Positions 1 through 14,715 of a stretch of 14,715 bases of DNA are shown piece by piece. Position numbers and translations under genes: made by a program. Under the pieces are notes generated by a model, which saw only the letters and a program-made list of their open reading frames with translations, did no database searches and was not told where the DNA came from. The stretch's first letter is position 1. Every line of letters starts with the position of its first letter. Origin of the DNA: Bradyrhizobium oropedii (GTDB lineage: Bacteria; Pseudomonadota; Alphaproteobacteria; Rhizobiales; Xanthobacteraceae); contig NZ_JACMYO010000204.1 of NCBI RefSeq assembly GCF_020889685.1, positions 1 through 14,715 of the forward strand, given 5' to 3'.

Positions 1-1
1 C

Positions 2-565
2 GGTCGGCGTGAAGCATTCCATGGCCAGATTATCTCCTATGCCGACGACTTCGTCATTCTCAGCCGCGGCCACGCGGAAGACGCATTGACGTGGACGAAA
101 GCGGTGATGACCAAGCTTGGGTTGACACTCAACGAGACTAAAACCTCGGTGAAGAATGCCCGATTGGAAAGCTTTGACTTCCTTGGGTACACGCTCGGAC
201 CCCGCCGCTTCCGCAATGGCGGACGGTGGTATCTTGGCGCGGCTCCGTCCAAGAAAAGCGTGCTGCGGATCAAGAGGAAGGTCAGCGTACTGCTGACGCC
301 GGGCAACAAGGGCGCTTGGCCCGAAGTACAAGCACGACTGAACCGCCTTCTGCGCGGCTGGTCCGCTTACTTCAGCTATGGCTCTCTTGCTACGGCTCAT
401 CAGGCCGTTGATCGACACGTCTTCGACCGCGTGCTCGCCTTTCTGCGCAGACGACATAAGACGCCAGGACGTGGCGTCAGACGGTTCTCTGATCAGATCT
501 ATGGGAACCCTGGCGTACTTGTGCTGAACCGCGTGCGCAAAGTGTCGCCGACGTGCGCCTTGTGA
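2..565 (+). CDS. Group II intron reverse transcriptase/maturase, C-terminal part (5' end outside window); no HNH endonuclease domain visible
   Basis: Frame 2 is open from the window edge: GRREAFHGQIISYADDFVILSRGHAEDALTW... The RT active-site YADD is at 38-49. The maturase/X-domain pattern ...RLNRLLRGWSAYFSYGS... follows, with stop TGA at 563-565. The ORF track shows only the part from TTG 86. Confidence 0.9.
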   Translation, partial: GRREAFHGQIISYADDFVILSRGHAEDALTWTKAVMTKLGLTLNETKTSVKNARLESFDFLGYTLGPRRFRNGGRWYLGAAPSKKSVLRIKRKVSVLLTPGNKGAWPEVQARLNRLLRGWSAYFSYGSLATAHQAVDRHVFDRVLAFLRRRHKTPGRGVRRFSDQIYGNPGVLVLNRVRKVSPTCAL

Positions 566-579
566 CGAGACCTGTCGGA

Positions 580-676
580 AAGCCGGATGCGGGAAAACTG
601 CACGTCCGGTTTGATGAGCGGGGAGAGGAAACGGAACGCGCAACAAGCGCATCACCGCGCCTCTCCTCGACTCTAC
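580..676 (+). ncRNA. Group II intron catalytic domain V and branch-point domain VI
   Basis: Domain V: AAGCCGGATGCGGGAAAACTGCACGTCCGGTTT (580-612), with the AGC triad and complementary arms AGCCGG/CCGGTT. Domain VI: GAG-CG-GGGAGAGG (616-628) pairs with CCTCTCCT-CG-[A670]-CTC (660-673). The unpaired A is followed by CTCTAC, consistent with a branch adenosine 7 nt from the 3' splice site. Confidence 0.75.
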
Positions 677-801
677 TTCCTCCCTTGGTCTTGCGCTGTG
701 CGACCTTTTCCAGGGGCGCGCGTCAAGGCGCGACAGCCGCCGACATAACCGATGCCTCCTCGCCTGTTGCGATGGGCCGGCGTTCAGTAAGGAGCTGACA
801 G

Positions 802-2368
802 GTGCCCACCGGTGAAGCGCATCACTTGGGTCTGTTCCCAGCGACCAATGAAAGCACCCGCGCCGCTTTCGTCTACGCCATGGAGCGCGTCATCGATCAC
901 GTGATGGAAAGTTGGGACGAGCAATCTGCTCCGACCAGCGGCATCAAGTTTGACCAGCTCAAGCACCTGCTGGCGTCGCTCGAAGTGTGCCCGGCCGCCG
1001 GCCGCGGTCTCGATGCCGTCATGCTGGAGGTGCGCGAGCGGATCATGCCGCACTTCGTCTCAGTCTCGCATCCTCACTATGTCGCGCATATGCATTCCGC
1101 GCCGATATTGCCGTCGTTGGTTGCGGAGTTTCTGATCAGCGCGAGCAACCAGTCGCTGGATTCGTTCGACCAAGGCCCATCTGCAACGGCGTTGGAATGC
1201 CATGTAGTGCGCTGGTTGAGCGATCTCGTGGGGTTCGGCGCGGCCGGTGATGGCGTGTTCACGAGTGGAGGAACGCAGGCTAATCTCATGGGGCTGATGC
1301 TGGCTCGCGATCACGCCCAGGCGAGCGAACAGAATACTGTGAGGATATCCGGCTTGCCGGCCGAGGCACGGGGTGGCGCATTCTGTGCTCGGAGCTTGCG
1401 CACTTCTCAGTCGCCAGAAGTGCCCACATCCTGGATCTCGGCGAATCCGCAGTCGTGCCGATCGAGGCCGAGCGCGATGGCAAGTTGAGCGCGGACCGGC
1501 TCGACCGGGCGATACGGTCCGAGGCCAATCGAGGTCATCGTCCGATCGCGCTGGTGCTGACGGCCGGCACCACCGAATGCGGCTCAATCGATCGAATCGA
1601 GGAATGCGCGCGTGTGGCCCAAGGCGCGAACGTGTGGGTCCACCTGGATGCCGCCGCCGCCGGCGCGCTGCTGCTGAGCGATCACGCGCCACTTTTGCGC
1701 GGTGTCGAACTCACCGATTCCGTCTCAATCGACTTCCACAAAATGCTGTTCCAGTCGATCAGCTGCGGAGTCTTCATGGTTCGCAGGCGTGCGACGCTGC
1801 GACCGGTCGATTGCTTACCTCAGCCCGAGCGATAAGGCCGATAGTCTCGGACCGAATCTGGTCGGGAAGTCATTGCAAACGACGCGCCGGTTCGATGCCT
1901 TGAAGGTGTTCATGTCGCTGCGGGCGCTCGGCAGGGAACATGTGGGCGAACTGCTCGACCTGATGCTTGCCCAAGCGCAATTTGCCGCGAAGGAGATGAG
2001 AAATCGACGGAGCTCGAATCGCTGGTCCGGCCCGAAACCAATATCGTATTGTTCCGATGACGACCCGCTGGGCAGAGCCTGCCGGACGCGCTCATCAACG
2101 AGGTCAATCGGCAGCTTCCTGGCCGCTCTGGAATGATCGAATCGCGGTCATCGGGAAGACAGTTTACCGGGGTCTCGCAGCTCTGAAGCTGACCCTGCTG
2201 CATCCCGAATGTGCGAAAGAGCGGGTCATCCCAGTGCTGGCCGCGATCGAAGCCAGCGCGGGCAAGCTCGGCGCAGAGTTGTGGTCCGGCGCTGATCGTC
2301 TGGACGAAATGCTATTGGTCGGAGCAGGCAAGTGGCGCATCATGACGGTCTTCTTGTCGAGCGGGTAA
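802..2368 (+). pseudogene. Group II PLP-dependent amino-acid decarboxylase (diaminobutyrate/aspartate/glutamate decarboxylase-like), multiply disrupted
   Basis: RBS AAGGAG (789-794) precedes GTG 802. Frames below are coordinate mod 3. Frame 1: ...HPHYVAHMHSAPILPSLVAEFLISASNQSLDSFDQGPSATALECHVVRWL...GVFTSGGTQANLMGLMLARD. Frame 0: WRILCSELAHFSVARSAHILDLG...VHLDAAAAGA...SIDFHKMLFQ (PLP-Lys codon 1740-1742). Frame 1: YLSPSDKADSLGPNLVGKSLQTTRRFDALKVFMSLRALG. Frame 0: ELESLVRPETNIVLFR-TGA(2058-2060)-...LPDALINEVNRQL. Frame 2: IAVIGKTVYRGLAALKLTLLHPE. Frameshifts fall near 1355-1373, 1795-1812, 2000-2010 and 2115-2129, plus one in-frame stop. Confidence 0.85.
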
Positions 2369-2835
2369 ATTGGGGCGACCCCCGATATGAGCATGCACGC
2401 CGGGCGGAGCTCGAAATTTTCGGTATCCCCAACCGGTTTTCGACCCCGGACGACATAGCTGCGGGAGAAATGCTCACCTATCGTCAGTTCGAGCGAACAA
2501 GCGAATTCTACCTGGCCCGAACGGCGGAGAACGCTGGTGGAGATATCTTCGGCGTCGGGCGCCTCATCCGCCACGATCCGGCGCTGGGAGTTGCGAGCTT
2601 CAGCACGATGCGGGACGCGCGCAGCTACGCCCCACCGGGTGGAGGAGAGCCTACATGCCATTTGGCCGCTGAATGGGCGAGTTTTTTCGATCAAGTCGCC
2701 GCGCAAGATAGGCGCCACGAAGCGATATGGCGACGAGGACGTCTGGGACTTCACCTTCAATTCCGGCAGGGCCGAGGTCGAGTATGTCCATGTTCGAGAC
2801 TTCGAAGAAAAGATAACCTGTGCCGGGTGGGTTGA
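2332..2835 (+). CDS. Hypothetical protein, probably a truncated fragment
   Basis: ORF-track ORF with GTG start. The first ~105 aa look protein-like (...EMLTYRQFERTSEFYLARTAENAGGDIFGVGRLIRHDPALGVASFSTMRDA). The Arg/Gly/Cys-rich tail looks like out-of-frame read-through across the next ORF. No family recognised. Confidence 0.3.
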   Translation: MAHHDGLLVERVNWGDPRYEHARRAELEIFGIPNRFSTPDDIAAGEMLTYRQFERTSEFYLARTAENAGGDIFGVGRLIRHDPALGVASFSTMRDARSYAPPGGGEPTCHLAAEWASFFDQVAAQDRRHEAIWRRGRLGLHLQFRQGRGRVCPCSRLRRKDNLCRVG

Positions 2836-3169
2836 GGCGTTCTCTGAAACCGAAAAGCAGCGAGAACTGCGGCTCCGTGACGTGATCGTCTACGATTTCG
2901 AGGGAGCGGTTTTATTCGAAGCGCCGCGCGTGTACCCTGCACGGAAGATGGACAATATCGATGTAGAGTTCCCATACAGGCCAGGACAAGCAAATGACGA
3001 ACCCGCCACGTCCCCCGGTTGGACCCCTTACCGAAGGCTACGTCGTGAAAGGCGGCCACAACCCAGGCACGTCTCAAACTCAGACGCGTCCAGCAGCGCC
3101 AACGCCAATCCTCGCGCCGAGAACGCCGCCAGCCCCAAATGCGCCGCCGTCGGGAGGACGCAGCAATGA
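2537..3169 (+). CDS. Hypothetical protein with a small beta-rich core; start and end unresolved
   Basis: Protein-like core at about 2726-2977: YGDEDVWDFTFNSGRAEVEYVHVRDFEEKITCAGWVEAFSETEKQRELRLRDVIVYDFEGAVLFEAPRVYPARKMDNIDVEFPY. No in-frame ATG; GTG 2639 is a candidate start. The tail after ~2990 overlaps a better ORF in another frame and is probably not real. Confidence 0.35.
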   Translation: MEISSASGASSATIRRWELRASARCGTRAATPHRVEESLHAIWPLNGRVFSIKSPRKIGATKRYGDEDVWDFTFNSGRAEVEYVHVRDFEEKITCAGWVEAFSETEKQRELRLRDVIVYDFEGAVLFEAPRVYPARKMDNIDVEFPYRPGQANDEPATSPGWTPYRRLRRERRPQPRHVSNSDASSSANANPRAENAASPKCAAVGRTQQ

Positions 3170-3176
3170 CCAATAA
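2994..3176 (+). CDS. Small Pro-rich protein (60 aa), paralog of the next ORF
   Basis: AGGA (2983-2986), 7 nt spacer, ATG 2994. Sequence: MTNPPRPPVGPLTEGYVVKGGHNPGTSQTQTRPAAPTPILAPRTPPAPNAPPSGGRSNDQ. Shares MTN..(E/D)GY..G..TSQ..RP.AP.P with ORF 3166-3339. Confidence 0.45.
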   Translation: MTNPPRPPVGPLTEGYVVKGGHNPGTSQTQTRPAAPTPILAPRTPPAPNAPPSGGRSNDQ

Positions 3177-3339
3177 GCACAGGACAAATGACGGCTACGC
3201 GATGGACGGCAAAATCATGAGCCGTCAGGACTCGTACGAAATCAAGACCTCACAGGTTAAGCAGAGGCCGCCTGCGCCTGCACCGATGGTGAAGGCTCAA
3301 GCTCCAACACCGCCACCGCCCAAGCCTACGAAGGAGTAG
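3166..3339 (+). CDS. Small Pro-rich protein (57 aa), paralog of the preceding ORF
   Basis: Strong RBS GGGAGGA (3152-3158), 7 nt spacer, ATG 3166. Sequence: MTNKHRTNDGYAMDGKIMSRQDSYEIKTSQVKQRPPAPAPMVKAQAPTPPPPKPTKE. Overlaps the previous ORF by 11 nt. The ORF track lists a longer alternative-start version from 3139. Confidence 0.5.
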   Translation: MTNKHRTNDGYAMDGKIMSRQDSYEIKTSQVKQRPPAPAPMVKAQAPTPPPPKPTKE

Positions 3340-3492
3340 GGCTGTCGCCGCGAGTGACAATCCACTGGAGGACGCCAAGTAGCCAAGCAATTGCGCTAAG
3401 CTGCTTGGCCTACCTTCAAATTGTCCTCGTCGCTCATACGCACCGTCCAGGTTTTGGGCGCTCCCGACGACCTAGGCAGAGATACTGCGTAG

Positions 3493-3650
3493 CCAAGCGT
3501 CTTCCCAGCCGGTGAGGATACGCGCGCGGTTATCTCAGACGGAAACTCGAGCAGCGCGAATATCGACAACCGAGTAAGCCTGAAACGCATTCAGACCCTG
3601 GTGGGTCATGAAGACATCAAGACCACGCTCAACGTTTACGGCATCTCATC
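3493..3650 (+). pseudogene. Tyrosine recombinase (phage-type integrase) C-terminal remnant
   Basis: The frame opens after TAG 3490-3492 with no start codon: ...NIDNRVSLKRIQTLVGHEDIKTTLNVYG. This matches the conserved LGH..(I/L).TT..Y box around the catalytic Tyr (codon 3637-3639). Only the last ~50 codons of an integrase are present. Confidence 0.6.
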
Positions 3651-4036
3651 GAGCGCGTCGAGGCGCAAATGTCTGCGACCCATCCAACTATGAAACTTCA
3701 ATTGGAGACTCGCGCTTGTGAATGTGGCTGGCATTTACTTTCCGCAAACGGTTCGACCATTGAATCGCCGCAAAGTTGCACTACGTTTCTGGCTGAAATA
3801 CGTGCAGTGTGTTGGGGGCGACCAGAGCACGCAACGAACAGTCCCCGGCCTACTGGCCCAATGTATGAAGGCACGTACCGAAAGGGACCCTCGTACAGGA
3901 GATGGAGATACACCATGACGGTGTTGCTCACTCTCGAAGCCAGCCAGCCCTGCGGTAAGACCTACCGTCTTGGTTTCGGGTGCAATGTGCATCTGGCTTC
4001 GATGTTAGCCTTGCTCAGCAGGCTGTTCTAACAACG

Positions 4037-4065
4037 AGGGCGCCTCTCACGGGGTGCCCTTTTTG
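4037..4065. terminator. Rho-independent-type hairpin between convergent transcription units
   Basis: AGGGCGCC (4037-4044) pairs with GGGTGCCCT (4053-4060, one G-T wobble), with an 8-nt loop. It is followed by TTTTTG on the + strand and preceded by an A-run on the - strand. It sits about 5 nt downstream of a possible TAG (4072-4070) for the minus-strand module. Confidence 0.5.
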
Positions 4066-4069
4066 CTGC

Positions 4070-4843
4070 CTAGCTCGCCTCTTTGAACTCGATTTTGCCG
4101 TCAGCTCGTATTGCTCGCCGTCATCGAATGCCGACTTCATGGTTCGCTGTGTGCCTTTCGGTAAAGGCGCTCCCTTCCGCGTCGGCTTCGCCAGAAAATT
4201 CCTCTGCCAGTCGGTTTGGCGGTGCTGCCGCACCAAGCCGCCCGTGCTGGATCCCGGAAAACAGCCGGAACAGATCGGCGTCCGAGGAATCTTCGCGCAC
4301 CGGCTTCCGGCCCAGCTCGTCCCAGACCCCGCCGCGCGTGATGCCCGCGGAATTGTAGATGGCGCCGACGATCGCGAAATGCAGCTCGGAGTAGTCCTTG
4401 ATCCATTGCAGGAACAGTTTCACCACGTCATCACTCGCCAGCGTTCAGGCGGCCGCATTGCTCAGGAGGTTGCGGACAAGCACCCGCTTTTCATCACTTT
4501 CCGCTGCCCAGTCGCGGAAAGCCTTGCGCAGCAGCGATCGATATTCCTCGCTTCGTATCCGCTCCGCCGTCTTTTCGTCTTGCATGTCGATCCGGGCGGT
4601 CAGCTCCATAATCGTCTGCGTCTTTTCCTTCATCTTGGCGGCAAGCATGTCGGCGAGATGTTTCAGGAAATCATTGATCCGCGCTTGCTCCCGCTCCGAC
4701 CATGCACCCGCACCTGCCGCTAAAATCCCGCCGACGAACGGAATCGCACCGCCCGCGGTGTTCAGCATAAACCGGGCGGCACCACTGGCCTTACTGCCTT
4801 TCGGGAGTTCAGGCAGACCACCTGCGGCGTCATTGTCGGACAC
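4070..4843 (-). pseudogene. Uncharacterised protein B of a two-gene module (nonsense codon plus frameshift)
   Basis: GTG 4843 is preceded by GGGG. It reads MSDNDAAGGLPELPKG...GAIPFVGGILAAGAGAWSEREQARINDFLKHL...RNLLSNAAA, then an in-frame TGA (4447-4445). The same frame continues TLASDDVVKLFLQWIKDYSELHFAIVGAIYNSAGITRGGVWDELGRKPVREDSSDADLFRLFS. A frameshift near 4262-4275 leads to ...STGGLVRQHRQTDWQRNFLAKPTRKGAP...SAFDDGEQYELTAK. The 3' end is uncertain (4072-4070 TAG in a third frame, or 4017-4015). Confidence 0.55.
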
Positions 4844-4853
4844 GAACCGCCCC

Positions 4854-5425
4854 TTAGTTTGTCACGCGGGCGCTGCGACTCTTATCGCGCGCATCCTCGG
4901 CTTCGATTTGGGCCTTTCGCTGAGAAGCGGCCTGCTGGATCGCTTGCTCAAGCTGTGGCTTGTTACGCTCGTATTCTGCGCGCAACGTTTGCAGATTACC
5001 CTCGACCATCTGTTTGAAGTTCTGCAAGACGGCTTCGGTCCGGTCATCGTCCACCACGCTGATTGTCAGCGTATTGCGTTCAATCGTTGCTCGGCGATCC
5101 AACAGCGTCATGGACGAGGGCCCAATCCTCAGTGTCTCCGCCTTGCCCACGAAGGGGATGCTGACGTCGAGCCATGTCGTTTCATCATCCGATAGTCGCC
5201 CCAGCCATCCTGGCGCTGCCGTTCTTCTGTTCGCCTTTCGGCGGTCATCTGGCCTTGGAAACGGACCACCTCGATGTTGTATTTTTCTGAGATCGACTGG
5301 AGGACGCCTCCGAGCGACGGGTATTTGAACAGCTTCCCATCAAGTTTCTGCACGTCGGCCACAGCGGCCTGCATCTGAAGCTGCCAGACCTGATAGAACG
5401 ACTTCTGAAACAAAACCTCTTCCAT
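4854..5425 (-). pseudogene. Uncharacterised protein A of a two-gene module (one frameshift)
   Basis: GGAG, 6 nt spacer, ATG 5425. Reads MEEVLFQKSFYQVWQLQMQAAVADVQKLDGKLFKYPSLGGVLQSISEKYNIEVVRFQGQMTAERRTEERQRQDGWGDY. A frameshift near 5165-5185 leads to ...DDETTWLDVSIPFVGKAETLRIGPSSMTLLDRRATIERNTLTISVVDD...EAEDARDKSRSARVTN. Stop TAA at 4856-4854, 10 nt before the start of gene B. Confidence 0.55.
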
Positions 5426-5481
5426 CTTTTGCTCCGTAGCCTGGTGCCGGCGGATCCTCGACCACAACCGGTGATCCTACC

Positions 5482-6130
5482 TTGATCCAGATACTGCCAG
5501 ATTTTCTTACGGCAAGCTTCCGACGCCGACCGAGGTGGCCCCGGAGACCTTATCGGGGCCGGCGGACGACAAATCCGGCGAGGCGGCCGCCGGACAAGCG
5601 GGATCAGTTTGGCTCGGCCTGGACAAGACTTACAGAGCTTGGAAATCGGCATGCCGAAGTCGGCGACGTGCATGCATTATATATAGCGAGGGCCGCGCAG
5701 TCGCTAACGTGAGTCCGTACTTTCTCGGCAGTATCGTCCTGGTCAAGAATCGCTGGCGGCTCAAACCGACGTGGTCGACGGCCAGCAGCGCCTTACGACC
5801 ATAACGATCCTCCTTTGCGTCCTCCGGGACCTGGCGGATGCGAAAATCGGGCAGGCGATCCATAACTAAATCTGCCAGACCGGCGACCCGATCATGGAAA
5901 CTGCCGACGTCTTTCGCTTGACGCCCAGGGAGCGCGATGCTGAGTTCTTCCGCTCGACGATCCAGATCGCATCGCAAACGCGGAGCCTGCCCGATCCCCG
6001 GCTGCTTGTGAGGGTCACATCCTGGCTGAACCATTATAGATGCGTCGGTTTTACGTGCTTCGAACGAAAGCTGATGTCGTGGAAAGTCATACCCTGCGCA
6101 CAGTCGGTCTGGATCAAGCGCGTGGTTTGA
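5482..6130 (+). pseudogene. DUF262-family (GmrSD/ParB-nuclease-like N-terminal domain) gene remnant
   Basis: ...PYFLGSIVLVK (from 5715, frame 0) is followed after a frameshift by DVVDGQQRLTTITILLCVLRDLA (DGQQRLTT = 5777-5800, frame 2). There is an in-frame TAA at 5867-5869. The same frame then continues ...FRLTPRERDAEFFRSTIQ... to 6130. The N-terminal part (RPYRG..., around 5549-5563) is also frame-scrambled. No DUF1524/HNH-like C-terminal half was recognisable. Confidence 0.6.
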
Positions 6131-6400
6131 TAGCGGACGGCATGGATTGTCGCCGCAGCAATTGTTTCTTGGCGACGTCAGTTGAAAACCGCAGGCGGTC
6201 ATTCCGAAACAGAATTGCAATTTGTGCCGGCCGTCATGGATAGCGGGGGGCCGGCGCCCCCGCTTTCGATGCCAGCACACTCGCCAGCCGGCACGCAGCC
6301 GGCTATCCGCCGCAGATTTGGCCCCCGACGCCGCGACCGCCGGCCGACGTATCCGTGCCTTCACAGAAGGCGCCAATCACCACCGGCATGAAGGCCCAAC

Positions 6401-7216
6401 TCACTGCATCCTTTGCGTCGTGATTGTCGATAAATGCTGCCCGTTGGGATTCCTGTAACGATTGGCGAGGCTTTGTAACAATGAAGCCATCCGGTCCGGA
6501 TCTGATCGAACAGTAAATTCTCCATAGTTAGGGTCGAAAACCGTGGTCCTTCCATTCGAGGCCGACGTCGCGATCGTGTGTGCGCCGCCTTCGGCAAAAT
6601 ACAAGCTGAGCAAATGGTTCGATCCATCTTCGTTGATTTCGTTCACCATGCGCATGACGTTCGAAGACTTGCCGAATTCGAATCTCTTCACTTCTCCAGC
6701 CGGTTCCAAGCCTGCGTCCTCCAAAATGGTATTTTGTGCCTGAAGGTCGGCCTGAGAAGATCCTGCTCCCCTGCTCCGCAACTGATCCTTGAGATTTTGA
6801 TATTGCTGCTGCCGTTCAGCCGCTGAGGCGTGCGTTTGCGATCCGGGTGTGAGCGCACTCATTCGGGTTGATGGGCTGTTGTTAAGATTGCGGAACCACT
6901 CCGCAGTCAGCCCAACGCAGATGCCGTCCACATTCGCATCACGCAGGTCGCCCGTTCTGTATTCAAACAAGGAGGTGGCCGGACTCTCTGGAGAGGATGT
7001 ACTGGGGTCGGAGGCGCTAGAAGTTTGAACGTTTGCATCCGAGGTATGTGGCTTGCTGCAGCAGGCCCCCATCTTGTCAGGCAACTCCCCCGGTTGTGAG
7101 CTCCACTGAGGCGCGAGACCTGCAAGTGTTTCCGTAAAGCCGCCGCTATCCACCGACTGACTCGGTTCGTCAGCTTGTCTAGTGCATGTGGATGAGCCAC
7201 TGATTCGATCATACAT
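6401..7216 (-). CDS. nopT: Type III secreted effector, YopT/AvrPphB-family (peptidase C58) cysteine protease, NopT-like
   Basis: 271 aa, intact, with AAGGTG RBS upstream of ATG 7216. Catalytic-triad motifs: DGIC100VGLTAEW, EGGAH213TIA, VFD228PNYGEF. The N-terminal PDK-M49-G50-A-C52-C53-SKP resembles the autoprocessing site that exposes a Gly/Cys acylation motif in this family. GC is visibly lower than the flanks. Confidence 0.85.
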   Translation of the reverse strand: MYDRISGSSTCTRQADEPSQSVDSGGFTETLAGLAPQWSSQPGELPDKMGACCSKPHTSDANVQTSSASDPSTSSPESPATSLFEYRTGDLRDANVDGICVGLTAEWFRNLNNSPSTRMSALTPGSQTHASAAERQQQYQNLKDQLRSRGAGSSQADLQAQNTILEDAGLEPAGEVKRFEFGKSSNVMRMVNEINEDGSNHLLSLYFAEGGAHTIATSASNGRTTVFDPNYGEFTVRSDPDRMASLLQSLANRYRNPNGQHLSTITTQRMQ

Positions 7217-7284
7217 GACGATTCACCTTTCTGTGCTGCGCTAGTCTCTACGCATCAATTCGGGCTGCTTAGTCCTGCTGCGAG

Positions 7285-7316
7285 GATACCCAGACAAGCT
7301 GATGGCGAGCTGACGG
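7285..7316 (-). promoter_or_regulatory. Candidate tts box (TtsI-dependent promoter element) upstream of nopT
   Basis: Minus strand reads ccGTCAGCTCGCCATCAGCTTGTCTGGGTATCC. Against the tts-box core as I recall it (GTCAGCTTnTCGAAAGCT), 12 of 17 specified positions match, including GTCAGCT and AGCT. It lies ~95 nt upstream of the nopT ATG. Confidence 0.45.
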
Positions 7317-7359
7317 GCAGCTGTTGTCCAGCTTAGAAAGCGTTCCTTTGTCGGACTTC

Positions 7360-8005
<646 letters not shown>

Positions 8006-8326
8006 CTTCCATCGGAGGTCGCGAGCGCCTCATGATGATTTCCAGATCGGCGCCGCAGTGAGTGCGGACAAACCGCCACCGGCGGATTGGCTGTCAATCG
8101 GCGTCGGACGGGGTCTCGGCGTCGACGCGAAGTTCGCTGGTCGACAGGGCGACGACGGCCGTGATCTTCCTGGCGTCGAACAAGACGGGCGCCCCAGTGG
8201 TCGGCGTCAATTGGACGAGAGCACCCCTGCGAAGGCGGGAAGGGTTAGCAGCTATGTTGCGCGAATAATCTTTTCATTGCGTGAACTTCCAAATCATTAC
8301 CTTGCCGGTTGCCGGCGAAAAACGGC

Positions 8327-8536
8327 CTACTTCAAAGCGGTCTCGATCAAATTGGCCAGCCTGGCTCCCGCCAGGGCGGCCCGCGCTCGGGCCACGTTCT
8401 TGGCGTCGGTCTCGTACTCGCGCGTCAGGAGGGGCGGGTTCTCTTGAGCCCAGACGGCGGGATCGACGATCTGCGCCTGCGCTGGGCTGACGCCGACGCC
8501 CGACAATCCGTCCTTGTCGTCCGCGTCGAAGATCAC
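8327..8536 (-). CDS. Hypothetical protein or C-terminal gene fragment
   Basis: GTG start only. The frame is open upstream (..WPWDWDAAFGGYASPYR) to a TAG with no ATG. Sequence: VIFDADDKDGLSGVGVSPAQAQIVDPAVWAQENPPLLTREYETDAKNVARARAALAGARLANLIETALK. It looks protein-like, but no family was recognised. Confidence 0.3.
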   Translation of the reverse strand: MIFDADDKDGLSGVGVSPAQAQIVDPAVWAQENPPLLTREYETDAKNVARARAALAGARLANLIETALK

Positions 8537-8692
8537 GCGATATGGCGAGGCGTAACCGCCAAAGGCGGCATCCCAGTCCCACGGCCAGCGCCTTCGATGG
8601 CGTCGGACGCAAGGCTCCGCTAACTGATGCGGCCTTGCTCCATTTACTCGCTGGCGCTAACGCTAGCCCTTCTGTCGGCGTAGGGGGGCACG

Positions 8693-8938
8693 GTGAGCAA
8701 CGCTCGCGAGTTTATCGATTTCTGGATCGAGAACAGCGTTCACGCTGTCGAGCAGTATCGGACGGTTGGCGCGTCGCAGGACGTGGCCGAACTCACCCGG
8801 CGCCTTGTCGAGGCTGCCGAAGGGCAGGGTATTTCGGAAGCCGAGTTGCGGGCTCAGATCGGCGACATTTCCGACTACATCGAAGGCCGGCTCAAGGCTG
8901 CGAATAGGGCTGAGAACGAGCGGCGTAAGCCTGCCTAA
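8693..8938 (+). CDS. DUF768-family small protein (common in rhizobial accessory regions)
   Basis: GTG 8693 is preceded by GGGGGG. 81 aa: MSNAREFIDFWIENSVHAVEQYRTVGASQDVAELTRRLVEAAEGQGISEAELRAQIGDISDYIEGRLKAANRAENERRKPA. The pattern matches my recollection of DUF768 proteins. Confidence 0.6.
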   Translation: MSNAREFIDFWIENSVHAVEQYRTVGASQDVAELTRRLVEAAEGQGISEAELRAQIGDISDYIEGRLKAANRAENERRKPA

Positions 8939-9077
8939 GCAACCTACAACTTGGCGGGGAAAGCCTTTGCTATCCAGAGTGGCCCTCCGGAAACAGGCCG
9001 CGCTCGCTACTCAGCCACTTTGTAAACGTCGCAGGGTTCGAGCTTAAGTTCTTCGAACGTTCGCTGCTGCTCAACGG

Positions 9078-9745
9078 TCAGCGCGACGTCCAACACCAAC
9101 CGCTACCATCTAAGTGGATGGAACATACTCTGGTGTGCTCTGGAACTACCTGACTTGGTAGCTGCCCATGCCACGTAGCCGGTGTTAAGTAGGCTTGAGC
9201 GAGGGGGCCGATCGAACCCCGTGGATGCTGTGCAGAGCCTCCAGTTCGGTCCGAGGTCGTCCGCTTGTCCTTCACGCTCTCTAAGGCGGCCGGGGCAGCT
9301 TGGCAGATGGAATGGATATGCAACAGCGGAGCCCGCTCCCGAATGGTGATCGATCGGCCGGCCATTTTCGGAACACCGCTTACGAGCTCAATAAGAGCAG
9401 TCCCTATTTCGATGCAGCTCACGCGGCCTGCCTCATGGTCGAGGGACGTTCCACGACAGGCGGGCCTTTGTTTTGGACCCCGGTCCACTGTTCGACTTCG
9501 AAGGCATCTCAGAATCGCTAAGGCGAACGTCTTCGGCGCGTCCGCACGGTAGGATGAATATTTCTGGAGAGCGCACTAATGCCCGACTGGGATATGCACT
9601 CATTGTCGGCCAGCGCACCCAGAAAAATGCTTCAACCTCGGTACGACGGCTTGGCAATTTCGTCCACCAGGATGGTGTCGCCGCCCGAACCCGCGGGCTT
9701 CATCAGGCGCCGGCCCGGATCGCCGCGCAGCATCGAAGCGCTGGT
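9078..9745 (-). pseudogene. Probable sigma54-dependent transcriptional activator (bEBP, NtrC/NifA family) relic: 5'-truncated and frame-scrambled
   Basis: Minus-strand fragments appear in the correct order but in different frames. (1) GRRLMKPAGSGGDTILVDEIAKPS, Walker-B-like GG(T)L.(L)DEI, about 9710-9650. (2) PEIFILPCGRAEDVRL, compare LPPLRER.EDI, 9555-9526. (3) ARLSWNVPRP, compare W(PG)NVR, about 9453-9445. (4) SCIEIGTALIELVSG, compare NCIERA. (5) ALESVKDK...RTGGS, compare the Fis-type HTH region, about 9275-9235. There is no Walker A or sensor domain, and several internal deletions are implied. Confidence 0.45.
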
Positions 9746-9831
9746 CCCTAACGAGCTATCCGTCTTGGAATCCAAAACCAATCAAACAAAACCTCCGTAT
9801 CGAGGTACTGGGACAAAATTGAGGGGAAATA

Positions 9832-10608
9832 ATGTCTGACGCTGCGTTAGATCGCACACCGAATGTCACGGGAACCAAGACCCTTAGCATAAACTACGGA
9901 TTGTTCGCGTTCGCGATCGTTGCGCTGACGATCCTCTACATCTGCGCGCGGCTGTATCAGCAGGCTTTTGGTTTCTCCATGGGGCTCGATGCAAGTTCAC
10001 CAGAATTTGGCGAATACTGGATGACGCTCTTCAGGATCGAATTACCGGTCTTGTATGGCGCAGGCGCGCTCTGCTGGACCTATCTCTTCCTGACGCGTGA
10101 CAAGAACATTGAGGCCATCACGCCCGAGGTCGAGTTGCGCAGTTACTTTTATCTGACCATGTGGCTCGTCGTGTACAGTTTCTGCATCTTCTGGACAGGC
10201 AGCTTCTTCGCCGATGGAGATGGAGTCTGGCATCAGACGACCCTCAGAGACACGCCGTTTACTCCCAGTCACATAATTCTGTTCTATGCGACCATTCCAA
10301 TCTATCTCTTCTTTGGCGTAGGCAGCTTTGTTTACGCAATGACCCGCATTCCGGCTTTCTGCAGGGGGATCTCGCTCATGCATGTCTTCGCCGTAGTGGG
10401 GCCTTTCCTCATTTTGCCGAATCTCGGTTTCAACGAATGGGGGCATGCTTACTGGCTCACCGAGGAAATCTTCTCCCATCCGCTGCATTGGGGTTTCGTG
10501 GTTCTTGGATGGTGCGCACTCGCGCTGGCGGGCGTCCTGATGCAGATCGTCGGACGATTTAGAGAACTCGTTCCAATTGTATTCAAGCAGGAAGCAGCGA
10601 GCGCGTGA
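9832..10608 (+). CDS. xmoC: Copper membrane monooxygenase subunit C (PmoC/AmoC family)
   Basis: GAGGGGA RBS (9821-9827), ATG 9832, 258 aa. Family motifs: FGFSMGLDASSPEFGEYWM; GDGVWHQTTLRDTPFTPSH (D130/H134/H147); NEWGHAYWLTEEIFSHPLHWGFV (N201/H205/H219). Multiple hydrophobic helices. Confidence 0.95.
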   Translation: MSDAALDRTPNVTGTKTLSINYGLFAFAIVALTILYICARLYQQAFGFSMGLDASSPEFGEYWMTLFRIELPVLYGAGALCWTYLFLTRDKNIEAITPEVELRSYFYLTMWLVVYSFCIFWTGSFFADGDGVWHQTTLRDTPFTPSHIILFYATIPIYLFFGVGSFVYAMTRIPAFCRGISLMHVFAVVGPFLILPNLGFNEWGHAYWLTEEIFSHPLHWGFVVLGWCALALAGVLMQIVGRFRELVPIVFKQEAASA

Positions 10609-10738
10609 CGAACGCACGTCTGCTACGCGTTGGAAAAATCGCGGTGCGGGAAGCCGTGCGACAACAATACAAGCCATCAGCTATTCCCGGACAGCGATCG
10701 CAGTTCGGCAAGAGCAGGTAAACCCTGGGGAGAGAGGA

Positions 10739-11587
10739 GTGACCTCAATTACCGACATCGATGCAGTGGCGATTCCGAAAAGGAAAGCTGGCCCCAAAGG
10801 TGAGACGGTCATTTCTGTCTCCGGTCTAACCCCCGGGGCAGCAAGATACTCCCGCATGTTCGACTTCTTGGTCGTGGCGGCGGTGGTGCCCCTCTTTGCG
10901 GGAGCATTCCATCTGCACGTGATGCTCACGGTCGGTGATTGGGACATGTATGTCGACTGGAAAGACCGGCAATATTGGCCCCTTGTCACGCCCATCTCCA
11001 TGATCATGTTTCCTGCTGCTCTGCAGGCGATCTTCTGGGTCAACTTCCGTTTGCCCATCGGCGCGACGGTGGGCGCAACAGTATTGCTGATTACCACGTG
11101 GCTCGGACGTTACGCGAATTGGTGGATATGGACAGGCTTCCCGTTCACGGAAGGTGTGCCCTCACAGGTGATCGCGGGCGCATTGTTGATGGATATGGCG
11201 TTAATCGTCCTTCGCAATAGCCTGTTCACATCCATCTTCGCGGGCTTTGCGTTCGGATTCGTATTCTGGCCATCGAATTATTCCGCTTTGGCTCCGTTCT
11301 ATCTCCCGGTCGAGCACCAAGGAATGGTCGCATCGTTGGCCGACATGATCGGTTACACATTTCCGCGTTCGAACATGCCTGAGTATCTGCGTATCATTGA
11401 GCGCGGTACGCTCCGGACTTTCGGTAGCTCGGTCAGTTGGGTGTCGGCGGCGTTCGCGGGCTTCATCTGCATATTCATGCACCAACTTTGGTGGCAGCTT
11501 GGGCGTTTTGCGTCCCAGACGACGTTCCTCAAGAACGGCGATGTCGTCAAATCCTTCATGGGTATGAAAAGCAGGCCAGCGTCCTAA
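10739..11587 (+). CDS. xmoA: Copper membrane monooxygenase subunit A (PmoA/AmoA family)
   Basis: Motifs: HLHVMLTVGDWDMYVDWKDRQYWPLVTPI..., LPIGATV, MPEYLRIIERGTLRTFG. The start is uncertain. GTG 10739 has GGGGAG 6 nt upstream; GTG 10766 and ATG 10856 are in-frame alternatives. The ORF-track start at 10577 overlaps xmoC and is unlikely. Stop TAA at 11585-11587. Confidence 0.9.
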   Translation: MTSITDIDAVAIPKRKAGPKGETVISVSGLTPGAARYSRMFDFLVVAAVVPLFAGAFHLHVMLTVGDWDMYVDWKDRQYWPLVTPISMIMFPAALQAIFWVNFRLPIGATVGATVLLITTWLGRYANWWIWTGFPFTEGVPSQVIAGALLMDMALIVLRNSLFTSIFAGFAFGFVFWPSNYSALAPFYLPVEHQGMVASLADMIGYTFPRSNMPEYLRIIERGTLRTFGSSVSWVSAAFAGFICIFMHQLWWQLGRFASQTTFLKNGDVVKSFMGMKSRPAS

Positions 11588-11612
11588 GCGAATAAGCACA
11601 GGGAACACGGGT

Positions 11613-12860
11613 ATGTTGGCGAAACTTATAAAACTCGCTGCAGGTTGGGTTGTCGCCTTCACTGTCGGAGTGTCTAGCGCAGCCGCTCATGGCGAACGTG
11701 CTCAGGAGCCATACTTGAGGACCAGGACGGTACAATTCTACGATGTCCACTTTTCCAAAACTGACGTGAAGGTGAACGAGCGATTCGAGCTAACGGGAAA
11801 ATTCAGGCTGATGGAGGACTGGCCGGACGCAGTTACTCCGCCGGATATTGTTTTCGTATCGAGCGTATCGCCGGGGCCGACAATTGCCAGGGTGGAAACA
11901 TACCTCAACGGTGAGCCAGCGAGGCAGTCTTTCGCAAAGCTGGAACTTGGCCGCGACTACGATTTTCGAATGGTTCTTGAGGGGCGCACATCGGGCAGCA
12001 GCCACATCCATCCCTCGATCTCGATCAAGGGATCTGGCCCTCTGGTGGGGCCGGGGCAGTGGATAAACATCTCGGGTGATGCGCATTCGTTCGCGTTTCC
12101 GATCAAGACTATGACTGGTCTGCAGATCGACGACTTGCAGACGTTCGGGCTGACTAACGCGATCGGATGGCATGTGGCCTGGCTGGCCGTGGCTGCGGCA
12201 TGGTTGTTGTTCTGGTTGGTTCGTCCACTGTTTTTGCCTCGATGGCTTGTTCTGCAGAAGGGCAGGGAGGATTTGTTGGTTTCGTTGAGAGACACCGGGG
12301 TCGGGATCATAGTGGCGGCGATCGTTCTCGTCATGGTCTTCGGCGGCTATGTCCGAGCCAATCAGGAATATCCATATAATGTGCCCCTCCAGAGCGGGTT
12401 GAATAAGGTCGCGCCGCGCCCGGCAAGCCCTGCTGACGCAGAGGTCAAGGTCATATCGGCCACCTATGACGTGCCGGGCCGTTCGATGAGATTAGCGACC
12501 AGGATAACGAACAAAGGATCAGAACCTCTTTCAATCGGCGAGCTTACGACCGCAAACATCCGCTTTCTCAATCAGGGGCTCCCGGCAGCAATAGCCAATG
12601 TAGATCCGACCTACCCAAGGGATCTCGTTGCACGCACAGGGCTTGAGCTCAGTAGTGATACGCCGATAAATCCCGGTGAGACGAGAGAGGTGCTCGTCGA
12701 GGCAACGGACGCCGTGTGGGAATTGGAGCGCCTTGTCAGCTTCCTCACCGACGTCGACTCCAAGTTCGGCGGGTTGTTGCTCCTCTACACTCCGAATGGG
12801 AAACGCGTCATAGCGGAGATGGGCGGACCAATCGTGCCCGTATTCACCGAACTTAAGTAA
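11613..12860 (+). CDS. xmoB: Copper membrane monooxygenase subunit B (PmoB/AmoB family)
   Basis: 415 aa. Signal peptide ...VGVSSAAA|H26GERAQEPYLRTRTVQFYD. H131-I-H133 sits in GRTSGSSHIHPSISIKGSGPLVGPGQWI. Two central TM helices (WHVAWLAVAAAWLLFWLV, VGIIVAAIVLVMVFGGY) are followed by a C-terminal cupredoxin-like half. Confidence 0.95.
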   Translation: MLAKLIKLAAGWVVAFTVGVSSAAAHGERAQEPYLRTRTVQFYDVHFSKTDVKVNERFELTGKFRLMEDWPDAVTPPDIVFVSSVSPGPTIARVETYLNGEPARQSFAKLELGRDYDFRMVLEGRTSGSSHIHPSISIKGSGPLVGPGQWINISGDAHSFAFPIKTMTGLQIDDLQTFGLTNAIGWHVAWLAVAAAWLLFWLVRPLFLPRWLVLQKGREDLLVSLRDTGVGIIVAAIVLVMVFGGYVRANQEYPYNVPLQSGLNKVAPRPASPADAEVKVISATYDVPGRSMRLATRITNKGSEPLSIGELTTANIRFLNQGLPAAIANVDPTYPRDLVARTGLELSSDTPINPGETREVLVEATDAVWELERLVSFLTDVDSKFGGLLLLYTPNGKRVIAEMGGPIVPVFTELK

Positions 12861-12874
12861 GCTTGGGTGCGCGA

Positions 12875-13504
12875 ATGTTGCGACGAGGTCAGTGGTGGAC
12901 GACCGCGAGCGGAAGAGGGGCGTTCCCGGCCGTCCTTGTGATGGCGCTCGGCGCTCTCTTTGTTCTTGCCGCCGTCCGCGAAGGTCATGCGCACGGAGCT
13001 GTGTCCATGGAGGCTGACCAATGCAAGCTGAAGGTGGACAGCTACTTCATGCATTTTACTGGCTATCAGCCGCAGAGCTCGAGAGCCGAATTTTGTGAGG
13101 ACATACCGGAGGTCGGGCGAACGATCATTGTTCTCGATTTCGTCGACGAGTCCCTGCGAGACATCCCGGTAAGCGTGAACCTGGCTAGAGATGACGGCGT
13201 ACAAAGGATGGAAATGACGAACACACCATCCAGCATACTCTACATTCCACCAAGGAAGTATCCGAACGGAACGATCAAGATCGACGTCAATTTCGAGAAA
13301 GCCGGCAGATACGTCGGCATGGTGGCGATCGAGCATCGCGGGCAAAGCGTGGCAAACTTTCCATTCGACGTGGGGCGAGGCTGGAGTCTGATACGTCTTC
13401 TGGCGTGGTGCCTGGTCATAGTGTCAGGCGCCGTGGGAACGTTTCTGTGGGCACGGCGACGATACTCGATCGGGCGGGAGCTATCCTGGGCGAACCACAG
13501 ATAA
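12875..13504 (+). CDS. Secreted, C-terminally membrane-anchored protein in the pmoD/amoD position (possible PmoD-like copper protein)
   Basis: ATG 12875; the ORF track uses TTG 12863. N-terminal signal-like segment FPAVLVMALGALFVLAAVREGHA|HGAV. Also present: C50-x8-M59-H60, FC74EDIP, and a C-terminal helix WSLIRLLAWCLVIVSGAVGTFLWARRRY. It is tightly packed between xmoB and copC. Confidence 0.7.
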   Translation: MLRRGQWWTTASGRGAFPAVLVMALGALFVLAAVREGHAHGAVSMEADQCKLKVDSYFMHFTGYQPQSSRAEFCEDIPEVGRTIIVLDFVDESLRDIPVSVNLARDDGVQRMEMTNTPSSILYIPPRKYPNGTIKIDVNFEKAGRYVGMVAIEHRGQSVANFPFDVGRGWSLIRLLAWCLVIVSGAVGTFLWARRRYSIGRELSWANHR

Positions 13505-13519
13505 AGGAGAGTTGTTTCG

Positions 13520-13879
13520 ATGAGAAGGTTCGTGCTCGTCATGATGGCCGTGCTGATCGGGATGCCAGGCGCGGTACTCGCTCACGCGCATCTCATTCGA
13601 TCGACGCCGCAAGATGGCAGCGAAATTTCAGCTCCGATCGACCCGATGGTCCTGTACTTCACTGAAGCGCTCGAACAGGGGCTCATCAATGTCGCCCTTT
13701 CTCGCGATGATAAAGCCGTATCAGGGCTTTCGCAGCCCGTGCTAAGCGGCAATGGGCGAATCGTGAATGTTTCATTGCCTCATCTATCTGCCGGGCTCTA
13801 TACCGTCAGTTGGAGCGTTGTCTCGATTGACGGGCATCGCACGGAAGGCAAGTTTAAATTTCTCTACCGAGGACCTTGA
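13520..13879 (+). CDS. copC: Periplasmic copper-binding protein CopC
   Basis: AAGGAG (13504-13509), ATG 13520, 119 aa. Signal peptide ...GMPGAVLA|HAHLIRSTP gives an N-terminal His after cleavage. ...GLYTVSWSVVSIDGHRTEGKFKF shows the D-x-H pattern typical of the CopC Cu(II) site. No Met-rich Cu(I) loop is evident. Confidence 0.9.
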   Translation: MRRFVLVMMAVLIGMPGAVLAHAHLIRSTPQDGSEISAPIDPMVLYFTEALEQGLINVALSRDDKAVSGLSQPVLSGNGRIVNVSLPHLSAGLYTVSWSVVSIDGHRTEGKFKFLYRGP

Positions 13880-14715
13880 TGGAAACGGTCCTCTCACTTG
13901 CGCGAGGGACTGCTTTCGCCTCCACGGCAGCTTTCGGCGGATTCTGCTGGGGTTTGGCACTGTGGCGCGAGGGTCTTGAAAGCGGCACTCGGTCGCGCTT
14001 CACGACGATAGCTTCCATCGCTGCGTCCGTAGCACTGGTCCTCAGTCTCTTGTATTTGACGGTTCGGATCGGCGCCGTCCTTGGCAAGCCGGTCTTGGCG
14101 GTCAGCTCCAGCGACGTGCTCTTCATCATTTTGGACACGCGGTTCGGGAGAGCTCAGGTCGCGGCGCTTGGGTTTGTGCTAGTCGGAGTTGCGAGCTTGC
14201 GACTTCTTCACAAGCCAGGTCTTGCCGCGAGTTTCAGCGGACTATCGCTGCTGGTGGGATTGTCCTCGAGCCACTCGGCGGCTGGCGGCACTATAGCAGG
14301 CTTCGCGATCAATATGATCCATGTTGCTGCGGCGGCGCTCTGGTTCGGAGGACTGTCAACCCTCGTTGTCGCGATGGCTCGACAGGCAGCGGAGAGGCCC
14401 GAAAGTAAATCCAGGCTCCTGAGCGGCTTTTCGACGGTCGCGCTGCCGCTCATGTTGCTCGTGGTCGCAACCGGAGTAGCTCTAGCAATCGAAAACGTGG
14501 GGACCTGGCCGGGTTTGGTGGCGACCGAATATGGCTGGCTCCTGACGGGAAAGTTCGCCTGCATCGGCCCGGTCCTGATCTGCGCTGCGTTTATCAGACA
14601 AAGGCTATTGCCGTTGCTAAAGACCGAAGGGGCAACTCAGCCACTCGGGATGGTCTTGAAGATCGAGCTAGCCTTCGCATTTCTGGTCACGTTACTTGCT
14701 GGCTGCCTGTCTCAG
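13879..14715 (+). CDS. copD: Copper resistance/import membrane protein CopD (partial; continues past window end)
   Basis: ATG 13879 overlaps the copC TGA (13877-13879). 279 codons are open to the window edge. The product is polytopic and hydrophobic, with ...SSSHSAAGGTIAGFAINMIHVAAAALWFGGL..., typical of CopD. It is not in the ORF track because no stop is reached. Confidence 0.85.
   Translation, partial: METVLSLARGTAFASTAAFGGFCWGLALWREGLESGTRSRFTTIASIAASVALVLSLLYLTVRIGAVLGKPVLAVSSSDVLFIILDTRFGRAQVAALGFVLVGVASLRLLHKPGLAASFSGLSLLVGLSSSHSAAGGTIAGFAINMIHVAAAALWFGGLSTLVVAMARQAAERPESKSRLLSGFSTVALPLMLLVVATGVALAIENVGTWPGLVATEYGWLLTGKFACIGPVLICAAFIRQRLLPLLKTEGATQPLGMVLKIELAFAFLVTLLAGCLSQ

Follow-up and report, generated by a model that had tools for sequence, protein, structure and literature searches.

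Copper membrane monooxygenases (CuMMOs) drive methane and ammonia oxidation, and to our knowledge little is known about many of the CuMMO lineages found in ordinary heterotrophs. Operons of the xmoCABD type are reportedly present in alkane-utilizing Betaproteobacteria (Rhodoferax, Polaromonas), hosts that are said to be neither methanotrophs nor nitrifiers. The extended pmo operon of the methanotroph Methylosinus trichosporium OB3b has the order pmoCAB-pmoD-copC-copD-pCuAC, and betaproteobacterial ammonia oxidizers carry amoCAB(E)D-copCD operons (Fisher et al. 2018, PMC6189053). Bradyrhizobium sp. ERR11 carries an operon that Khadka et al. (2018, PMC6215863) list among CuMMOs with no known function. 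Here we analyze a CuMMO operon of this extended type, xmoCAB-pmoD-copC-copD, which occupies the end of a stretch of DNA from Bradyrhizobium oropedii (NZ_JACMYO010000204.1, positions 1–14,715; this whole stretch is hereafter called the window). The cluster very probably encodes a working CuMMO. We favor, with moderate confidence, the reading that it is a functional, horizontally mobile accessory module, and that its enzyme most likely acts on a small organic substrate.

The operon and its metal ligands

From position 9832 to the window end, six genes lie on the same strand, as given by the open reading frame (ORF) table and by direct reading of the 3' end. With the region upstream, the features are as follows.

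9570..9831, plus strand: putative promoter and 5' leader, non-coding, alignable between the two Bradyrhizobium lineages
9832..10608, plus strand: xmoC, CuMMO subunit C, 258 aa, with the CuC and CuD sites (Pfam AmoC, 1.2e-90)
10739..11587, plus strand: xmoA, CuMMO subunit A, 282 aa from GTG 10739 (Pfam AMO, 1.1e-79)
11613..12860, plus strand: xmoB, CuMMO subunit B, 415 aa, with signal peptide and CuB site (Pfam Monooxygenase_B, 3.8e-133)
12863..13504, plus strand: pmoD/amoD homolog, 213 aa (TTG 12863) or 209 aa (ATG 12875) (match to PmoD structure 6CPD)
13520..13879, plus strand: copC, periplasmic copper-binding protein, 119 aa (Pfam CopC, 7.7e-18)
13879..14715, plus strand: copD, first 279 codons, frame open at the window end (Pfam CopD, 2.4e-16)

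The Pfam profiles of the C, A, and B subunits are covered almost completely (E = 1e-79 to 4e-133), and three CuMMO subunits are thus encoded together. XmoC aligns without gaps to the chains of solved ammonia monooxygenases (AMOs) and particulate methane monooxygenases (pMMOs), and D130/H134/H147 fall on the CuC ligands and N201/H205/H219 on the CuD ligands. The alignment also places D140 and E212 at positions whose equivalents have been reported as ligands in purified AMO (PMC13058606). In XmoB, residues H26, H131, and H133 correspond to H33, H137, and H139 of Methylococcus capsulatus PmoB, while Q41 and R65 take the places of H48 and H72, two His positions specific to M. capsulatus. Cleavage of the XmoB signal peptide is predicted after AAA, and the chains of AMO and pMMO in the PDB start at the same HGE.

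These observations bear out most of what an earlier note on this DNA, written from its letters and ORFs, had claimed about the locus: a complete CuMMO operon with full CuB, CuC, and CuD ligand sets. Its residue numbers for XmoC and XmoB are correct, the two XmoA peptides that it quoted are found in the translation, and its six-gene order and gaps (130, 25, 2 or 14, and 15 nt) match the ORF coordinates. Its statement that the order C-A-B-D-copC-copD is the known extended pmo/amo arrangement agrees with the published operons (PMC6189053), with PCuAC as the next gene in the relatives of the window. The copC/copD junction had to be corrected: rather than an ATGA overlap, it reads TGATG at 13877–13881, with one base in common.

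The cluster has the features by which CuMMOs are recognized, namely, C, A, and B subunit genes side by side, an N-terminal His and an HxH on B, and CuC and CuD sites on C, and on these sequence grounds we consider it very probable that a working enzyme is encoded. XmoC, XmoA, and XmoB would together form a membrane enzyme. By analogy with the characterized members of the family, it would use O2 and reducing equivalents at the CuC/CuD sites of XmoC, with CuB on XmoB, to hydroxylate a small uncharged substrate, and the alcohol product would then pass to host dehydrogenases.

Relatives, genomic contexts, and mobility

A genome scan in which each prokaryotic species was represented once returned six related loci only, in five Bradyrhizobium species and in one metagenome-assembled genome (MAG) of Hyphomicrobiales. 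The window DNA is 95–96% identical to that of Bradyrhizobium sp. Arg816, Bradyrhizobium sp. cir1, and B. shewense ERR11, including the flank that carries nopT. For B. sacchari p9-20 and B. manausense BR3351, DNA identity is 84.5% and limited to window positions 9721–14715, beyond which the flanks differ; similarity in blastn to these two genomes starts at 9721–9734. The unit in common begins ∼100–260 nt before xmoC and ends at the PCuAC stop codon, which lies beyond the window end. Thus, two Bradyrhizobium lineages carry the module between unrelated flanks, those of B. manausense and B. sacchari encoding an amino-acid ligase, a major facilitator superfamily transporter, pyridoxal phosphate (PLP) enzymes, an ornithine decarboxylase, and StiP. 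Transposase fragments adjoin the module, including one after the PCuAC gene at locus L002.

The earlier note had asked whether the operon is restricted to islands or is core and syntenic across the genus. With five Bradyrhizobium species and two flanking contexts, the module is, by these sequence comparisons, accessory and horizontally mobile in Bradyrhizobium. A megablast search of the plasmids in PLSDB gave no match to the operon, and within the window neither direct nor inverted repeats were detected at the borders of the module. Base composition was considered as a marker of foreign origin and rejected: the module has 56.4% GC and the flank 59.9%, and the same offset of 2–4 points is seen in every host.

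The surroundings of the module in the window are island-like, with the 3' end of a group II intron, a broken PLP-dependent decarboxylase gene, and an intact gene for the effector protease NopT. The intron end (86–676) comprises a maturase ORF fragment at 86–565 (GIIM, E = 7e-14) and a domain V/VI RNA at 578–676 (Rfam Intron_gpII, 47 bits), the latter being the sole Rfam match in the window, with no RNA family found in or near the operon. The decarboxylase (Pyridoxal_deC, 802–2136) is spread over three overlapping ORFs in different frames, which indicates a frameshifted pseudogene. On the minus strand, three consecutive ORFs of 132, 98, and 112 aa at 4445–5467 are protein-like and have no Pfam match, as does an 81-aa ORF at 8693–8938 on the plus strand. 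The nopT gene (6401–7216, minus strand) encodes 271 aa (Peptidase_C58, E = 2e-62) and has ∼95% DNA identity in Arg816, cir1, and ERR11. Both this identification and the Bradyrhizobium relatives agree with the rhizobial host, with nopT 2.6 kb away, that the earlier note had deduced. Contrary to what had been stated there, the operon is not the sole lesion-free stretch of the window, as nopT is likewise full length.

A further explanation, which takes up that note's proposal of ethylene as a substrate, is that the enzyme oxidizes ethylene or another plant volatile and so modulates nodulation; this would account for its position beside nopT in a symbiosis island. In the window and its three nearest relatives, an intact nopT indeed lies 2.6 kb from the module among debris of insertion sequences and group II introns, a truncated groEL-like ORF is found upstream of the module at L002, and ethylene is a substrate of some CuMMOs (Haliea, cited in PMC6215863). 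However, the linkage to nopT is confined to a single Bradyrhizobium lineage, the flanks in B. manausense and B. sacchari being unrelated. Moreover, no nod box, tts box, sigma-54 promoter (TGGCAC-N5-TTGC), or NifA upstream activator sequence was found in the region upstream of xmoC, and no epoxide- or coenzyme M-pathway genes were found near any locus examined. We therefore regard this explanation as quite unlikely.

Two weak sites were also weighed as signs of symbiotic regulation and dismissed, a GG-N10-GC at 9742, of a kind expected by chance, and a poor GTCAG site at 9077. A scan for sigma-70 promoters and terminators gave nothing that exceeded the expectation from shuffled sequence. The segment 9570..9831 has no sigma-70 consensus but can be aligned between the two Bradyrhizobium lineages, although the remainder of their flanks differs.

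The comparison of relatives also affects the start of xmoA. In the alignment, GTG 10739 of the window corresponds to GTC in Arg816, cir1, and ERR11, which have a 1-nt insertion just downstream as well. GTG 10766 is the only xmoA start common to the window and this lineage, and may be the true one; if so, the nine N-terminal codons of XmoA may not be translated in some strains. In the other lineage (B. sacchari, B. manausense), xmoA has a GTG together with an in-frame ATG. The conserved core of XmoA is untouched by this ambiguity.

Selection on the module and decay of gene X

Each of six genomes (the window and five relatives) has the six genes intact, at a synonymous divergence (dS) of 0.3–0.5 between the lineages. 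The ratios of nonsynonymous to synonymous divergence (dN/dS) are low for the catalytic subunits (xmoC 0.07–0.14, xmoA 0.10–0.19, xmoB 0.09–0.15) and higher for the accessory genes (pmoD 0.25–0.39, copC 0.28–0.42, and 0.25–0.42 over pmoD, copC, and copD). The operon is thus under purifying selection, with dN/dS of 0.07–0.19 for xmoCAB, as the earlier note had surmised.

A gene next to the module had a different fate. Gene X, which encodes an alpha/beta-hydrolase-like protein of ∼300 aa, follows copD and is intact at loci L007, L008, L016, and L017. In Bradyrhizobium it survives as remnants (L002, 15232–15459; L003, 15220–15435; L004, 8393–8677; L005, 15531–15695), and different segments have been retained in each of the two lineages. 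The retention of intact genes with low dN/dS at this dS, while X decayed beside them, therefore argues that selection has continued to act on the copper genes and those of the monooxygenase.

This contrast also bears on the possibility that the host makes no use of the module, which would be a silent passenger and owe its intactness to chance or to recent arrival. The surrounding region is rich in pseudogenes, X and the CoA-pathway genes found in relatives have been lost, and no regulator gene adjoins the module in Bradyrhizobium, all of which would be in keeping with such a relic. Six intact genes in six genomes, at the divergence given above and with X decayed next to them, are not, and we consider a silent relic strongly disfavored and extremely unlikely.

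Probable copper-handling genes

The gene after xmoB, orfD in the earlier note, has no match among Pfam or NCBIfam families. In a phmmer search against the PDB, its product matches 6CPD (E = 8.6e-19), the PmoD crystal structure of Methylocystis sp. Rockwell. The protein has a signal peptide, a cupredoxin-like periplasmic domain, and a C-terminal membrane helix. The motif that defines the CuA-forming PmoD proteins is Cx7MxH (PMC6189053). The window protein lacks this CuA-forming motif (Cx7MxHxnC) and has instead C54-x7-F62-M63-H64...C78, that is, Cx8MH, with the Met shifted by one position and a Phe at the position of Met49. The Cx8MH version is retained in the relatives within the clade.

CopC has a predicted mature N-terminus HAH and a D-G-H motif, both read off the translation. 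In the relatives, where the gene is complete, copD encodes a CopD-cytochrome c fusion of 636–663 aa, and the 645-aa orthologs have Cytochrom_C and Cytochrome_CBB3 domains at residues 379–463. A gene for a PCuAC copper chaperone is found downstream of copD at L002, L005, and L013. The full module in relatives is accordingly xmoCAB-pmoD-copC-copD::cytochrome c-(decayed gene X)-PCuAC, ∼7.1 kb in length. PmoD, CopC, the CopD-cytochrome c fusion, and PCuAC would supply or handle the copper of the enzyme.

A distinct clade with its own copper-site signatures

Identities to enzymes of solved structure or known role range from 37% to 49%: 44–47% to AmoB, 49% to Methylocystis PmoC, and 37–39% to HmoA and HmoC of the hydrocarbon monooxygenases (HMOs). 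XmoA has 43% identity to the PmoA of M. capsulatus and 49% identity to the PxmA of Methylomagnum, and XmoB is 41% identical to M. capsulatus PmoB. The search for near-identity to a characterized monooxygenase, raised in the earlier note, gave none. Its remark that the proteins differ heavily from PmoA and AmoA is correct in that identity to AMO, pMMO, and Pxm is 41–49%, although this is an ordinary distance between CuMMO clades. Among XmoA homologs, those at 71–88% identity are all metagenomic sequences, and those at 59–65% include Burkholderiales, Methylibium, and Burkholderiaceae MAGs.

We searched XmoB across 1.84 billion cluster representatives and obtained 326 family members, among which the best full-length relative has 48% identity. 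Look-ups of proteins exactly matching XmoB and XmoC of the window gave no record. In a bootstrapped neighbor-joining tree of these representatives and named references, XmoB of the window groups with those of B. manausense and L007 (98% bootstrap), and with L008, P0160, and L006 added the support is ∼70%. This clade stands apart from AmoB, PmoB, PxmB, and HmoB. AmoB (9cl6, 9pxf, P0161) lies on another branch, beside PxmB, and HmoB and the Rhodococcus ZPP sequence form a distant outgroup.

The clade is also marked by residues close to the copper sites of XmoC. The CuD-loop signature H-A-[YF]-W-[LM]-T-E-E-I-F-S-H-P-L-H (residues 205–219) is invariant among members that are from 56% to 100% identical, and so is the CuC-loop signature R-D-T-P (residues 139–142); together these residues correspond to window positions of about 10246–10488. 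Both signatures are absent from AMO, pMMO, Pxm, and HMO. Within the CuD loop, Thr210 of the clade replaces the Met of AMO and pMMO, and an additional His216 stands at the position of their Ala. Variation of the CuD loop has been proposed as a possible determinant of substrate preference (review, PMC13058606). From its sequences, this is a distinct proteobacterial CuMMO clade, comprising Bradyrhizobium, metagenomic Proteobacteria, and Burkholderiales MAGs, that is neither nitrifier AMO nor methanotroph pMMO.

Two established functions have to be weighed against this placement. As an AMO, the enzyme would oxidize NH3 to hydroxylamine, either by heterotrophic nitrification or co-metabolically as a side reaction, which might matter in nitrogen-rich nodules or soil. 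Bacterial AMOs are the nearest solved relatives of XmoB (9leg, 9pxf, and 9cl6, within the AmoB range of identity; 9leg at 3e-115), followed by pMMO PmoB, the C-terminal half of XmoC is nearest to AmoC, and CuMMOs in general are promiscuous toward NH3 (PMC6215863). The NCBIfam models AmoB_BACT (541 bits versus a cut-off of 336) and AmoC_BACT (361 versus 319) are reached, but AmoA_BACT is missed (285.3 versus 290). In the plasmid pRS11DPr1 of Methylomagnum ishizawai (L010, 106382–109193), an operon of pxmABC order has its genes named amoA, amoB, and amoC by PGAP. Because the NCBIfam "ammonia monooxygenase" names are thus also given to Methylomagnum pxmABC, they are not substrate-specific. The window clade is not nested in AmoB in the neighbor-joining tree, the deep nodes of which are poorly supported, and the XmoC residues around CuC and CuD are unlike those of AMO at clade-invariant positions.

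As a pMMO, the enzyme would let these Bradyrhizobium strains oxidize methane, perhaps at the concentrations found in the atmosphere or the rhizosphere. The closest solved relatives of XmoA and of full-length XmoC are M. capsulatus PmoA and Methylocystis PmoC, respectively, the genes are ordered as in the extended pmo operon of a methanotroph from the Alphaproteobacteria, and the cut-offs of TIGR03079 and TIGR03078 are reached for the B and C subunits. Against this, XmoA falls far under the cut-off of the A-subunit model TIGR03080 (244.6 versus 318.15), identity to PmoA and PmoB is just 41–43%, and the clade lies outside PmoB in the tree. Related betaproteobacterial carriers of xmoCABD are, reportedly, unable to assimilate methane.

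Gene neighborhoods and the likely substrate

We inspected ∼20 kb around each locus. At L007, the XmoA of which is 74% identical to that of the window, an AraC regulator and an aldehyde dehydrogenase are encoded upstream. Downstream follow X, an acyl-CoA ligase, a thiolase of the acetyl-CoA acetyltransferase type, a short-chain dehydrogenase/reductase (SDR), an enoyl-CoA hydratase, and PCuAC. L008 and L009 (60% identical, and nearest to the named Burkholderiales MAGs) have the same genes downstream and a divergent MimR_N/HTH_8 regulator upstream. A LysR regulator, a CoA-transferase, and an SDR are encoded near the homolog on the P0013 contig. In Mycolicibacterium chubuense NBB4, the characterized hydrocarbon monooxygenase operon is also followed by a gene for an acyl-CoA ligase, with 33% identity to the L008 enzyme.

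Between the MimR-like regulator and xmoC at L008 (8760–8850), we noted two copies of the palindrome TGTCGCAG-N-TGCGACA, candidate activator binding sites; this interval contains no clear -24/-12 (sigma-54) element, and the upstream region in Bradyrhizobium has no counterpart of the palindromes.

No hydroxylamine-handling genes, such as those for HAO, c554, or cM552, were found near any of the ∼10 loci examined, nor methanol or formaldehyde oxidation genes in any of these neighborhoods. Carbon-catabolic genes stand beside clade members instead. Together with the comparisons of the preceding section, this makes it unlikely that the enzyme is an AMO and very unlikely that it is a pMMO. Since the operons of relatives carry carbon-catabolic genes and none for hydroxylamine or methanol, we favor a small organic molecule (a C2–C4 alkane, an alkene, or a related compound) over ammonia and methane, and put the chances of this substrate class at about even. 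In the reading that we favor, the Bradyrhizobium module is a shortened form of a longer operon, located in an island-like region beside nopT and insertion-sequence debris. Because this module lacks the CoA genes, downstream metabolism would proceed through host enzymes, or the role of the enzyme may be non-catabolic.

Several points weigh against a small organic substrate and the wider reading of which it is part. The carbon-catabolic neighbors are found only in some members (L007, L008/L009), and the Bradyrhizobium module and L018 are without them. Any tie to the betaproteobacterial xmoCABD operons, reportedly associated with ethane and propane, would be tentative. The affinities of XmoB to solved AMOs and the scores of XmoB and XmoC above the NCBIfam AMO cut-offs, described above, point the other way, and the deep nodes of the tree are without resolution (bootstrap < 20%). 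The survey of alcohol-, aldehyde-, and hydroxylamine-oxidizing enzymes covered only the locus neighborhoods. Finally, the literature examined contains no activity, transcript, or protein data for any member of the clade.

A more speculative idea joins the altered CuD site to the genomic setting: the island-borne enzyme, with His216 and Thr210, could act on a small molecule derived from the plant or the nodule, such as ethylene, another volatile, or bacteroid ammonia. We hold this to be a long shot. If true, it would affect legume symbiosis and give CuMMOs a role outside methanotrophy, nitrification, and hydrocarbon catabolism.

An intact CuMMO with a full copper-delivery set has been kept by selection in a few rhizobia that are cultivable and genetically tractable. 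B. shewense ERR11 is an isolate, so that the substrate of the clade is accessible to experiment, and the clade-invariant substitutions beside CuC and CuD offer concrete positions at which to probe substrate preference. The automatic annotation of such genes as "ammonia monooxygenase" could mislead nitrogen-cycle surveys of soil metagenomes.

Comparison with known systems

The xmoCABD operons of Rhodoferax and Polaromonas are reported to have a similar xmoCAB-D arrangement. The nearest named relatives of the window clade are the Burkholderiales MAGs at 59–65% XmoA identity, with fatty-acid and CoA genes in their operons; the Bradyrhizobium module is without CoA-pathway genes. The actinobacterial HMO and butane monooxygenase systems (hmoCAB of M. 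chubuense NBB4; Rhodococcus sp. ZPP) are CuMMOs that act on C2–C4 hydrocarbons and are borne on plasmids or islands, and the NBB4 operon is followed by an acyl-CoA ligase gene, as at L007 and L008. They differ from the window in their low identity (37–41%), their position as an outgroup in the tree, and their lack of a pmoD-copCD-PCuAC extension.

The pmo operon of OB3b and the betaproteobacterial amo operons match the window in gene order and in the ligands of CuB, CuC, and CuD. The window clade is nevertheless separate from them, with 41–49% subunit identity and a host that is neither methanotroph nor nitrifier. Its PmoD has Cx8MH instead of Cx7MxH, its CopD is fused to cytochrome c, and both copper loops of its XmoC have clade-specific residues (CuD, Thr and His; CuC, Pro).

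The closest described system is that of ERR11, which Khadka et al. (2018; PMC6215863) named without further analysis. Its xmoCAB genes are orthologous to those of the window, with 94.7% DNA identity over window positions 9128–14715 and 96–97% within xmoC, xmoA, and xmoB (97% over xmoA). Gene order is alike and nopT is also near; ERR11 differs in its xmoA start codon and in a rearrangement of the upstream flank. The novelty implied by the earlier note is accordingly lower, and our literature searches returned no work on a Bradyrhizobium CuMMO later than that study. The window is thus a strain-level addition to an already known, uncharacterized CuMMO lineage. What is new here is the definition of the module, its two genomic contexts, the evidence for selection, the decay of gene X, and the clade signatures in XmoC and PmoD.

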